64,000 bases of DNA from NCBI GenBank assembly GCA_965112155.1, contig OZ218101.1. The stretch is one strand, 5' to 3'. Shown here piece after piece: positions 8,545 through 60,197 of this stretch (its first letter is position 1; each line of letters starts with the position of its first letter). A program made the translations under genes and the position numbers. The DNA comes from Podarcis liolepis (lineage: Eukaryota). The notes under the pieces were generated by a model. It saw only the letters and a program-made list of their open reading frames with translations, made no database searches and was not told where the DNA came from.

Positions 8545-8597
<53 letters not shown>

Positions 8598-8648
8598 GGT
8601 TTTGGTGTCTTCGGGTGTCTTCCCGTGTAAGAGTTGGGGTGTCTAGGC

Positions 8649-8682
8649 GACGTTTCGACGAGGTCTCACTCGTCATCTTCAG
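8649..8682 (-). ncRNA. Minimal type I hammerhead ribozyme motif (inverted copy)
   Basis: Exact reverse complement of 8734-8767. Confidence 0.75.
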
Positions 8683-8733
8683 GCTGGTGCTTTCGGCTTC
8701 TTGTTACTGAAACAAGAAGCCGAAAGCACCAGC

Positions 8734-8767
8734 CTGAAGATGACGAGTGAGACCTCGTCGAAACGTC
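8734..8767 (+). ncRNA. Minimal type I hammerhead ribozyme motif
   Basis: CTGAAGA-T-GACGAG-tgagac-CTCGTC-GAAA-C-GTC: CUGANGA core, 6-bp stem II, GAAA, palindromic ACGT stem III and GUC triplet. Stem I is weak. Confidence 0.78.
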
Positions 8768-9391
8768 GCCTAGACACCCCAACTCTTACACGGGAAGACA
8801 CCCGAAGACACCAAAACCTGCATTCCTGTACCCGTGAAAATCTACGAAAGCATATAAAAAACCGACACCAGAACCAGAGGCACACAGAACGCCATCACCA
8901 ATCAACCACACCAGACCCAAACCCAGACCCTCTCCACAGATAAATTACAGACACCATCCAGTAGCCAAACCATAGTGGCACCTCCGGATGCTGCACCCCC
9001 CTGCTATCCCTACACAGATCTGGCTGGCACAGGGCACAAAACCACAGCTCGCCCCTATACACGAAGCCAAGCCAGAGCACAACTAAGTGCAGTACAGCCA
9101 TCTTCTCAGAAAAACTCTTCACAAGCTCAAGAGGTCAAGACACGAAAGCTTTAGCAACTAATCCACACTTAATGACCCACCTAAGTGGTACTCAGAATAT
9201 CACTCAAGAAATCACTCAAGATATCCCTCAAGTAATTAAGGAACAAAAGAAGAAAAGGCACACTAACCTGGGAACTTCCTCTCCGCCCAGAACGTTGGAG
9301 GCTATACACCACACCCCCTCAACAGTATTTATAGGAACTCAAACACTGAGATCCTGCTCTGTTCCAGTAACAAGAAGCCGAAAGCACCAGC

Positions 9392-9425
9392 CTGAAGATG
9401 ACGAGTGAGACCTCGTCGAAACGTC
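9392..9425 (+). ncRNA. Minimal type I hammerhead ribozyme motif (second direct copy)
   Basis: Identical to 8734-8767. A TATA-like TATTTATA lies upstream at 9326-9333. Confidence 0.78.
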
Positions 9426-9476
9426 GCCTAGACACCCCAACTCTTACACGGGAAGACACCCGAAGACACCAAAACC

Positions 9477-9523
<47 letters not shown>

Positions 9524-9846: not shown

Positions 9847-10331
9847 AGTACCTTGATTCTCAAACGCCTTGGTACTCAAACAACTTGGAACCCAAACACT
9901 GCAAACCTGGAAGTGTTCCGGTTTGCGAACTTTTTTCGGAAGCTGAATATTGTTATGTTTCCGATTTGAGTGCCACACTTCCGTTTTGAGTGTCACATTG
10001 AGGTCTGTCTATTTATTTTGTGCTTTTGTTTTTGCGGCTCTCTTTGTTTTTGTGACTGCGTGGAACCCAGTTCAGCTACTGATTGATTGATTGATTGATT
10101 GATTGTGTGACTGCAGCACATTGTTTATTGCTTTCGTTTTATGGATCAATGGTCTCATTAGATAGTAAAATTCATGTTAAATTGCTGTTTTAGGGGTTGT
10201 TTTTAAAAGTCTGGAACAAATTAATCCATTTTGCATTACTTTCTATGGGAAAGCATGCCTTGGTTTTGGAACACTTTGGTTTTGGAATGGACTTCTGGAA
10301 CGGATTAAGTTTGAGAACCAAGGTACCACTG
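9847..10331 (-). mobile_element. Tc1/mariner (Tigger-like) MITE, left end eroded
   Basis: Right TIR ...aaccaaggtaccactg followed by TA, with internal (GATT)n. Reverse-complement match to 40143-40921. Confidence 0.82.
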
Positions 10332-10403
10332 TAAGTTCACAGTAGTGAGTTAAATGGACCAACTGTATGGCTGGAAGTAAGGCTATAACCTGTATTTGAC
10401 CCA

Positions 10404-10511
10404 ATAAAAAAATTCCTTCCAGTAGCACCTTAAAGACCAACTAAGTTAGTTCTTGGTATGAGCTCTCGTGTGCTTTCATGTGCATGCACACTTCTTCAGA
10501 CCCAGAAGAAG
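10404..10511 (-). mobile_element. Short remnant of a second Penelope-like family with a degenerate hammerhead
   Basis: Minus strand reads CTGAAGA-a-GTGTG-catg-CACAT-GAAA. A 12-bp direct repeat gtatttgaccca flanks it at 10392-10403 and 10512-10523. Confidence 0.7.
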
Positions 10512-26724: not shown

Positions 26725-26888
26725 NNNNNNNNNNNNNNNNNNNNNNNNNNNNNNNNNNNNNNNNNNNNNNNNNNNNNNNNNNNNNNNNNNNNNNNNNNNN
26801 NNNNNNNNNNNNNNNNNNNNNNNNNNNNNNNNNNNNNNNNNNNNNNNNNNNNNNNNNNNNNNNNNNNNNNNNNNNNNNNNNNNNNNNN
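26725..26888. other. Assembly gap (164 N)
   Basis: Run of N. Confidence 1.
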
Positions 26889-29972: not shown

Positions 29973-30297
29973 GGGGAAAGGGTCATAGCTCAGTGGTAGA
30001 AGATCTGCTTTGCAGGCAAAAGGTTCCAGGTTCGATCTTCCTGTTCTCCATGAAATCCTGGAGAGCTGCTGTCAGTCTTTGTAGATACTGTAGTACTGAG
30101 CTACATGGACCTATGGCAGGCATAGGCAAACTCCGGCCCTCCAGATGTTTGGGACTACAATTCCCATCATCCCTGACCACTGGTCCTGTTGGCTAGGGAT
30201 GATGGGAATTGTAGTCCCAAACATCTGGAGGGCTGGAGTTTGCCTATGCCTGACCTATGGTCTTACTCTGTATAAGGCAGCAGCATCCTATGTCCCT
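29973..30297 (+). mobile_element. Squam2-like tRNA-derived SINE interrupted by a MITE
   Basis: A box tagctcagtggtaga, B box ggttcgatc and tail tataaggcagc..cctatgtccct. Confidence 0.75.
30117..30252. mobile_element. Palindromic hAT MITE (136 bp)
   Basis: 58-bp inverted arms with one difference and a perfect 8-bp TSD acctatgg. Confidence 0.93.
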
Positions 30298-39429: not shown

Positions 39430-39474
39430 GACAATGGAGGAGGAGATGACAGCTGCGTTGAAGAAATTTTACGG
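39430..39474 (+). CDS. AFF3: Internal coding exon (45 nt, phase 0/0) of an AF4/FMR2-family gene: DNGGGDDSCVEEILR
   Basis: Acceptor ctccttgtttacAG (39428-29) and donor GTagga (39475). The peptide ends in SCVEEILR, the AFF-family motif (recalled: AFF2 SCVEEILR, AFF3 SCVEEIIR, AFF4 SCVDEILK). It joins in frame to the exon at 58112. Confidence 0.88.
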
Positions 39475-39647: not shown

Positions 39648-40142
39648 GGATTTAGTTGTATCTGCATGGTATCTGTTGTCATTGGAGAGAGAATAATGTT
39701 CTCCTATAGCATCCTGGAGAGTCTTCCTTAACAATGATGTCACTGTAGGCTAGTCAAACGAAAACAAGGCCCTAACATTGTTGTTTCATTTTCCTTTAAA
39801 GGAATGTGGGGAATTTATGGTATGTTCATTAACCTGAGGAAATGATTTATGTCTGTTGCTGCTCTAACCTCCTTCCACCAAATATCTTAAATCCAATTGT
39901 TACTGACAGGAATTGAAGACACGCGAGGTTTCTATGAAAACCTTACACTTATAGGAGAATTATGGAAAGCTCACATTTTAATTATTATTTTCTTGTATAA
40001 GTTGCAAGCAAGATGCTTTCATTTCTCTCCAGTGCGTTATAATTGTTTGGCATTTATTGAATTCATATTGTTGTGGTACTCCCTTGCTTCCCCATCCCTC
40101 TTAGGTAATGAAGCAAAATATTAATAAATGGGAAAGTGAATA

Positions 40143-40478
40143 CAGTGGTACCTTGGTTCCTAAACTTATTCCGTTCTGGAAGTCTGTTCCAAAACCAAAG
40201 CGTTCTAAAACCAAGACGTGCTTTCCCATAGAAAGTAATGCAAAATGGATTAATCCATTCCAGACTTTTAAAAACAACCCCTAAAACAGCAATTTAACAT
40301 GAATTTTACTACCTAACGAGACCATTGATCCATAAAATGAAAGCAATAATCAATATACTGTAGTATAAAATAAATAAGACAGCATTGTAGATGATAATTT
40401 ATTTATTTTTTAATTCCTTACGTGCACTGATGATAGTCATTGTTTGGAAGGGGGGCTTTTATCCATTTCTACAGTCAC

Positions 40479-58111: not shown

Positions 58112-58198
58112 GAAATGACCCATTCATGGCCTCCGCCCCTTTCTGCTATTCACACACCTGGCAAATTGGAACAAAACAAGTTTCCTTTCACCAACAAG
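58112..58198 (+). CDS. AFF3: Internal coding exon (87 nt, phase 0/0) of an AF4/FMR2-family gene: [29 protein letters not shown]
   Basis: Acceptor tctcttcttctttttaAG (58110-11) and donor AAG|GTaaat (58199). Carries the AFF motif [16 protein letters not shown]...KFPF. The residues PLSAI, PGK and terminal NK fit AFF3 best among paralogues, as do the very long introns. The paralogue call is from recall. Confidence 0.88.
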
Positions 58199-58601: not shown

Positions 58602-59911
58602 GAGAGTTGACCTGAATGTAGTATTTTGCATAGCTTTGCAACTTCAGATCTGCAGATAAAGCCTTTGGAACATTTCAAACCTAGTTGTCGTGTGCGCATT
58701 TTCCTCCCCTCCTAACTTTAACTTGCATAAGGCAATCTGCTTTTTATCAACATTCATTTAAAAATTACCCTCATGGCTGGTTACCAAACCTATACCATCA
58801 TCTGCTGCCTCTACTCCACTCTTTATAAATCTTCTGTCAGACCTCTGCCCTTTTCCTTTACTTCTGCTTTCTGTGTTATTGACTACTGCTACAGGCCAAT
58901 GATTGTATCAGCTCTTGTGATTTGTAAAATATCAGCAGCACACTGTTGATTATAAATAAATGTGTGTTGTTGTTGTTTTTTAAAAAAAGTTGTGTTGTGA
59001 AGTTGTTGCGATTCCAAAGTCATGTATCTGAAGTACAGGAAGAGAGGCAATGCCAGAAACCCCAGCAGCCTCATACACTGGGATAGCCAACCACATTGGT
59101 TCATAAAGGGGAATAGCAAGGTAGAGAGAGAAGTAGGATAAGCAGTTGTAACAATTAATTAGAAAGGAGATAGGAGCATTAAAGTGTTTCCTATATTTGT
59201 ATTGATGTGGTAAATTAACCACACATCTCGAGAAAGCGGTAGTTTTTGCTCATTTGTGTTTAAAAATATAATCTTGATTATGTTAGCCCTCAGGCATTTT
59301 GAACTACTTTTAACCTGTACTTCAGCTAATTGCTAGTCTGACAGCTTGAAATTTACACTGTATTAAATAGGCAATTAAAATTCCACAGGCTGTCATGGCT
59401 GCAGCCAAGCTTATTTGATATCAGTCTAGAAATCAAAGCTAAATAACTGTCTGTAAAAATTTCATTTTATTCCTATGGAATATGCTGTATAACAATAAAG
59501 GAAATTTAATGTCAAGTAGACTTATTGGCTTCAATTCAGCTGGGGACTCAGTGGTATGCCAGACATACCATTTGCACAGCTGCTTTTGTCTTCCAGTTCG
59601 TTCTTCAGCCACCCCTTTGCTGAATTGCTTTTTTAAACTTAGGGGTTGGTGGCAAATATAGTCCAACCCAGTGATTCGGTAAAAGAGAACACAGAAATAG
59701 GAAGCAGCAGAAACAGCAGTCCACAAAGCCTTGAAGATCAAGGCAACTGAATACAGGAGTTTGCATCCTCTAATCTCAGTGCGATTGGCAAACTGAACAT
59801 TTCCAGTATTACTCAATTGGGGGCATAAAGTTTCAATTTGTGGTCATTGTTATAATACTGGAAAAGAGAGCTCTATTCCATGTTGCTTTGCTTTCTATGT
59901 TCAAAACTATA

Positions 59912-60197
59912 CCATGGTACCTCTGTTCTCAAACTTAATCCATTTCGGAAGTCTGTTTCAAAACCAAAGCGTTCCAAAACCAAGGCACGCTTTCCCATAG
60001 AAAGTGATGCAAAATAGATTAATCCATTCCAGACTTTTAAAAACAACCCCTAAAACAGCAATTTAACATGAATTTTACTATCTAATGAGATCATTGATCC
60101 ATAAAATGAAAGCAATAATCAATGTACAATGTACTGTACTATAAAATAAATAAGACAGTATTGTAGATGATAATTTTTTTTCTTACGTGCACTGATA
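59912..60197 (+). mobile_element. Truncated Tigger-like MITE (40143 family)
   Basis: Co-linear with 40143-40430. Confidence 0.8.

Follow-up and report, generated by a model that had tools for sequence, protein, structure and literature searches.

A perfect 113-bp hairpin in a Penelope/Poseidon-like insertion of a lizard genome is probably an ordinary by-product of integration

The window, a 64,000-nucleotide stretch of Podarcis liolepis contig OZ218101.1, contains an insertion of 889 bp that is 5'-truncated, ORF-less and Penelope/Poseidon-like, and that lies within a (TA)n tract. It carries a perfect 113-bp hairpin, which we consider, with a probability of about 85%, to be an ordinary by-product of Penelope integration, whose predicted trapping of the neighbouring hammerhead ribozymes bears no sign of having been selected for. 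The insertion adds one more example to a layout that is already in the literature, and its family is present in very many copies.

Structure of the insertion

The insertion and its flanks comprise the following features:

8547..8594, strand not applicable: left (TA)n target tract, 24 units
8593..8709, minus strand: inverted 5'-truncated pLTR copy (arm A), starting at the ORF+84 end point
8682, minus strand: third minimal hammerhead core, in arm A
8702..8714: fold-back junction with a 4-bp stem and a 5-nt loop, the antisense register of the mini-hairpin at 9360-9372
8711..8823, plus strand: direct pLTR copy on the proximal side (arm B), with the same sequence as 9369-9481
8734..8767, plus strand: minimal type-I hammerhead 1, predicted cut after 8767 (descriptor from PMC4209133)
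8740..8856, plus strand: beginning (39 codons) of an RT-endonuclease ORF of Penelope/Poseidon-like type, with the start codon inside the hammerhead
8824..8856, plus strand: PLE tail of 33 nt, between ORF+84 and ORF+117, with (TA)n loose ends after 8856
8857..9364, plus strand: non-coding body, likely 3' UTR, 5'-truncated at 8857
9365..9481, plus strand: pLTR copy on the distal side (C), containing minimal hammerhead 2
9392, plus strand: core of hammerhead 2, predicted cut after 9425
9480..9522, strand not applicable: right (TA)n target tract, 21.5 units

Comparison of the window sequence with itself shows that 8593-8705 and 8711-8823 are perfectly complementary in inverted orientation (113 of 113 positions), with a loop of 5 nt (ACTGA), and that 9365-9481 is the reverse complement of 8593-8709 (117 of 117). 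The match between arm A and the distal copy reaches 8714/9360 with one mismatch, at 8710, and the pairing extends to 163 nt at 99% when the (TA)n tracts are included; both the hairpin and its (TA)n-extended distal match, as described in a first-pass annotation, are thus confirmed. Among the longest 25 of the 48 inverted repeats listed in the window, 8593-8823 is the only one to exceed 53 nt at 100% identity, which is far beyond chance expectation. The computed energy of the hairpin as DNA is -159 kcal/mol. In the loop, the base at 8710 agrees with the family sequence in neither orientation, sense or antisense; it may be untemplated or have arisen through a later C-to-T change.

The arrangement of partial-tandem direct pLTRs plus an adjacent inverted 5' copy is that of EN+ Penelope-like elements, as is the presence of a tail of ~30 nt, here the 33 nt between the two end points. 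The peptide encoded by the pLTR is 67% identical to the N-terminus of protein P0001 and 56% to P0122. All ten long relatives (about 770-850 aa) that were picked among the best 150 matches of P0122 contain an RVT_1 domain, and eight of them show a GIY-YIG-like C-terminal motif by motif matching; by Pfam, GIY-YIG appears in one of the ten only, at an E of 0.002 that is below the cut-off. By this two-step homology, through P0001 and P0122, the pLTR encodes the start of an ORF with an RT and, at its C terminus, a GIY-YIG endonuclease. The present copy retains just the first ~40 codons, and is therefore not autonomous, its RT and endonuclease not being intact: none of four ORFs matches a Pfam domain, and no match was found between the body (8857-9364) and 151 PLE-like proteins. 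The body also includes a 12-nt tandem repeat at 9190-9236 (3.9 copies, 83%).

Concerning the type of element, the CX2-5CxxC pattern is absent between RT and endonuclease in all ten picked relatives, which are distant ones and not the parent ORF, and the two matches to the pattern that they do contain both lie outside this inter-domain stretch. The absence of such a linker, read from distant relatives and not from a tree, would point to a parent element of Penelope/Poseidon rather than Neptune type. Neptune had first been suggested by the target, a (TA)n microsatellite, a bias that the literature ties more to Neptune and Naiad; this assignment was dropped for a Poseidon-like one after comparison with the Poseidon of the anole (see below) and examination of the linker pattern.

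Copies of the family in sequencing runs

We used the unit 8824-9481 (658 nt) as a query against four runs, two contig sets (X1 and X6) and two raw RNA runs (X21 and X23), the latter chosen by species label and possibly from a species other than that of the window. The family is very abundant, with 5440 and 8824 contig records matched to the unit. A switch to (TA)n after 8856 marks the end of the copy in 64 contigs of X1, 63 of X6 and 28 RNA reads; a different shared sequence continues upstream of 8857 in 19 and 27 contigs and in 28 and 57 reads. Position 8857 is therefore the truncation point of this particular copy. The bases at 9005 and 9284 are unlike 99% and 100% of the X1 family contigs, and are private to this copy or to its source.

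We also considered, and rejected, a tandem retrozyme family with a 658-nt unit: the joint from 9481 to 8824 is merely the pLTR running into its tail, and the family reads mostly break at 8856/8857. No contig among those listed spans the whole unit. Non-LTR retrozymes are likewise pLTR-derived and ORF-less, with two sense hammerheads, according to a preprint (bioRxiv 10.64898/2026.07.22.740005); unlike these, the insertion is not a tandem array of whole units, and its 8856/8857 joint looks copy-specific.

Formation of the insertion

Three pieces make up the insertion, the first running from 9481 back to 8857, the second from 8856 back to 8711, and the third, inverted, from 8593 to 8709. Each of them starts at one of the two family RT end points (ORF+84 and ORF+117), and both outer pieces directly join (TA)n. 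The distal copy contains a native mini-hairpin with a 4-bp stem and a 5-nt loop (9360-9372), and the palindrome loop on the plus strand is the loop of this mini-hairpin in antisense register, with one base changed. However, about 9 distinct mini-hairpins of at least 4 bp exist within the 658-nt unit, so a fold-back on the native one is suggestive but not decisive.

Such an arrangement likely arose through reverse transcription primed from the two ends of the cut target. The left target end would have primed a cDNA running about 120 nt, which may then have annealed through a 4-nt microhomology to the cDNA of the right end or, alternatively, have snapped back on itself and switched template, and the inverted 5' pLTR copy would have been left behind as a by-product of integration. 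The same layout has been published, with two direct pLTRs, an adjacent overlapping inverted pLTR and an optional tail of 30-40 nt, and palindromes are known to occur at inverted PLE junctions (PMC8557442, PMC3846280); this bears out the annotated Penelope origin and the interpretation of the inverted copy as an integration by-product. Moreover, the Poseidon protein of a lizard was reported to cut and extend both strands of AT-rich DNA, and to begin reverse transcription 111-118 nt into the ORF, at two sites that flank the tail (PMC11167929).

Pen2a_Av of Adineta vaga (PMC3846280; scheme in PMC8557442) has, as here, two direct pLTRs with an adjacent, shorter and overlapping inverted pLTR, a tail of about 30 nt, a pLTR that encodes the start of the ORF, and a 5' truncation. 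Unlike these, the insertion lacks RT/endonuclease coding, its target duplication is unreadable in (TA)n, and its tail is internal, at the tandem joint, instead of at the outer end. As for PAc, the Poseidon of Anolis carolinensis described in PMC11167929, the likeness is one of positions: the start codon lies at the start of helix II in both, the distance from cut site to start codon is 28 nt here and 26 in PAc, RT starts at ORF+117 here and at 111-118 in PAc, and the target is AT-rich in both, although here it is a (TA)n microsatellite. The double-ended priming step of PLE integration is still listed as unresolved (PMC8557442, PMC11167929). With its three pieces, two RT start sites and a joint on a native mini-hairpin, the insertion provides a clean example that fits such priming.

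All three pLTR copies are identical over 113 nt. If gene conversion is ignored and the yearly rate is taken as 3 to 1 x 1e-9, this puts the age below about 3-9 Myr. As expected for a young insertion, the identity of the three copies indicates that the perfect match of the arms reflects youth and not conservation. The insertion seems to be too recent for selection to have left a mark on it.

Position relative to AFF3

Two coding exons of AFF3 were identified downstream of the insertion:

39430..39474, plus strand: AFF3 coding exon, the nearest one found downstream of the element, 87.5% to residues 330-345 of protein P0007
58112..58198, plus strand: AFF3 coding exon, PF05110 (E 4.7e-15), residues 343-374, 87.5%

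Both exons have AG/GT borders on the plus strand, and their best named matches are to AFF3, with a lacertid protein among the closest; lizard AFF2 matches exon 58112-58198 at 72.7%, against 87.5% for AFF3. The insertion lies about 30-31 kb upstream of the first exon and 50 kb upstream of the second, and both direct ribozymes are in the sense orientation to the gene, as had been annotated. No AFF3 exon was found upstream of the insertion within the window, and a run of N occupies 26725-26888, between the insertion and the exons. For these two reasons we can only infer that the insertion sits in a long AFF3 intron, and hence in the pre-mRNA.

Predicted trapping of the ribozymes

Besides the core boxes, the hammerhead has a single additional nucleotide after position 9 and a helix II of 6 bp, and its helix III strand is a 4-nt palindrome that lacks a loop. 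This combination corresponds to the minimal type-I motif of PLEs. It shares with the motifs described in PMC4209133 the core, the extra nucleotide, the G10.1-C11.1 pair, a long helix II and a palindromic helix III, and departs from them in helix I, which has 2 contiguous pairs as compared with the typical 4-5 bp, although 2 are also reported for D. virilis. No high-frequency family difference falls in helix I among the best 40 of 79 difference rows. Rfam hammerhead families gave 0 matches at the gathering score, and none appeared among the 55 matches at E up to 10. Since helix III has no loop, the hammerhead needs a dimer partner, in agreement with the first-pass annotation and with the description of the PLE minimal motif as folding only as a dimer (PMC4209133). 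Motifs placed back to back on the two strands, at a distance of 100-700 bp, are already noted in that source.

When the transcript is folded at successive stages of its growth, the pairing between arms A and B has a probability of 1.0, and for helix II of ribozyme 1 the value is 0.0 from its emergence until the distal copy is complete; in equilibrium folding, arm A favours copy 2 over copy 1 by about 15 kcal/mol. It is therefore physically credible, as the annotation had proposed and as these models predict, that ribozyme 1 is sequestered by the arm while the RNA is being transcribed, or ribozyme 2 at equilibrium, one partner being lost either way.

Whether this trapping would explain how a sense-oriented ribozyme is tolerated in AFF3, as had also been claimed, is another matter. 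One may imagine a selected antisense lock, with sense copies persisting in introns such as that of AFF3 only if the arm disables the dimeric hammerhead. The predicted pairing of the arms and the dependence on a partner are compatible with it, as is the reported depletion of retrozymes from Xenopus introns (bioRxiv 10.64898/2026.07.22.740005). Intronic ribozymes can matter, given that blocking the CPEB3 intronic ribozyme with an antisense oligonucleotide raised expression (PMC10274809), and that splicing can be aborted by a fast intronic ribozyme, that of HDV, a result given second-hand in PMC2995048. In the CPEB3 case antisense pairing blocks an intronic self-cleaving RNA, as is predicted here, but that ribozyme is HDV-like, conserved and monomeric, and its effect on expression was shown (PMC10274809), whereas the blocking proposed here is a prediction.

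However, PLE minimal hammerheads cleave poorly even as dimers (PMC4209133), the PLE ribozyme of the anole required its protein for cleavage and gave no cut-site reads (PMC11167929), and slower intronic hammerheads were found to be compatible with splicing (PMC2995048, again second-hand). A model that takes no account of magnesium or proteins puts the active cis-dimer fold, even without the arm, at 14.9 kcal/mol over the MFE. Neither of the two RNA runs shows a read-end pile-up at 9425/9426, although this is a weak negative. Furthermore, the minus strand is predicted to form the duplex too, and an inverted arm is routine in PLEs. With a weak class of ribozyme, a helix I of 2 bp, an unfavourable dimer fold and slow hammerheads that allow splicing, the need for a lock is doubtful; considering also the youth of the insertion, the lock is not supported as an explanation of tolerance in AFF3. 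We see no support for it at this locus beyond the predicted folding, and consider it distinctly unlikely.

Among the titles and openings of abstracts covered by our literature search, mostly outside subscription papers, none proposes that an inverted pLTR locks a ribozyme, an idea that may thus be unpublished. It is unlikely, if worth stating, that the inverted pLTR is a built-in safety catch, which would zip a dimer-only hammerhead and draw ADAR, arm-bearing copies being preferentially kept in introns; if true, such a catch would account as well for the exceptional degree of Penelope hyper-editing in lizards. Should arm-bearing copies prove to be enriched in sense introns, a by-product of integration would be filtering the places in which elements with ribozymes can persist. 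The likelier gain would be a connection between inverted pLTRs and lizard Penelope hyper-editing.

RNA editing and double-stranded RNA

The 113-bp duplex is predicted to form in the pre-mRNA during transcription, where it would probably be A-to-I edited and then discarded with the intron. Among the best 40 of the 79 difference rows, we retained the 15 sites that have 6 or more variant reads in X23 and do not exceed about 3% in X6. Five T>C sites in X23, at 9362-9444 in the arm region, occur nearly all on one read strand (11/24 vs 0/30, 13/29 vs 0/36, 15/39 vs 0/59, 16/35 vs 1/60 and 12/32 vs 1/62; none with a Fisher p above 2.6e-5), and are found at no more than 1.4% in the DNA run X6, which has the same species label. 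An A>G change at 9446 leans to the opposite strand in X23 (p 0.21). Under the usual convention for stranded libraries these strand patterns are A-to-I-like, fitting the report of Penelope as the massively edited LINE-class repeat in lizards, with over 40,000 sites (PMC5625713).

It could be argued from these data that the hairpin matters as a double-stranded RNA signal, that is, as a sink for ADAR or a Dicer source of small RNAs, and not as a lock. However, the T>C pattern belongs to the family and not to the locus, X6 is not from the same individual, and one transcribed paralog could yield the same pattern. In X21 it is not reproduced, with 4 of 50 reads at one T>C site and 0 at the other four; in addition, T>C at 9237 leans the wrong way, and two types of change unrelated to editing are strand-biased too. 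The excess of A>G plus T>C is not significant (39/61 in X23 vs 6/16 in DNA, or 12/29 pooled; p 0.09 and 0.07). As for microRNA precursors, the best Rfam match reached 67.7 bits against a gathering score of 74, and was a generic hairpin match on both strands. Editing would moreover be a consequence rather than a function. We consider this alternative very unlikely. The annotated role as an ADAR substrate thus holds at the level of the family, in X23 and in the published lizard data (PMC5625713), and does not extend to the other of the two RNA runs.

Finally, a fold-back artefact of assembly or library preparation is hardly credible as the source of the palindrome: assemblies are known to struggle with tandem and inverted PLE structures, and the window does contain an N gap, but arm A begins precisely at a family RT end point, where it abuts (TA)n, in a layout that is as published, the arms lead into different, non-mirrored unique sequence, and the four bases 8706-8709 of arm A are present elsewhere in the distal copy only, the last two of these observations making an assembly fold-back unlikely as judged from the sequence itself. 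Other copies of the family have fold-back ends too, in keeping with a by-product of integration: such loose ends occur at 9356, about 10 nt from the palindrome junction, in at least 1 contig of X1 and at least 2 of X6, although these few could be library fold-back chimeras.

Neighbouring features

The surroundings of the insertion contain several further elements. An unrelated minimal hammerhead-like core lies about 1 kb away on the minus strand (10455-10499, core at 10499), with the extra nucleotide and a 6-bp helix II, and is probably a relic of another Penelope family. On the plus strand, 1340-2584 is a frame of 415 codons with an RVT_1 domain (E 1.7e-40), which we take to resemble an RTE/Bov-B LINE. 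An imperfect hairpin at 30112-30257, with arms of 68 nt that are 93% complementary and a loop of 10 nt, looks like a palindromic miniature DNA transposon; owing to its presence, the intron already holds another long RNA duplex. Lastly, copies of a dispersed repeat at 10110-10333, 40141-40364 and 59910-60125 occur in opposite orientation and are 91% complementary over more than 200 nt, and may represent further duplex partners in the pre-mRNA.
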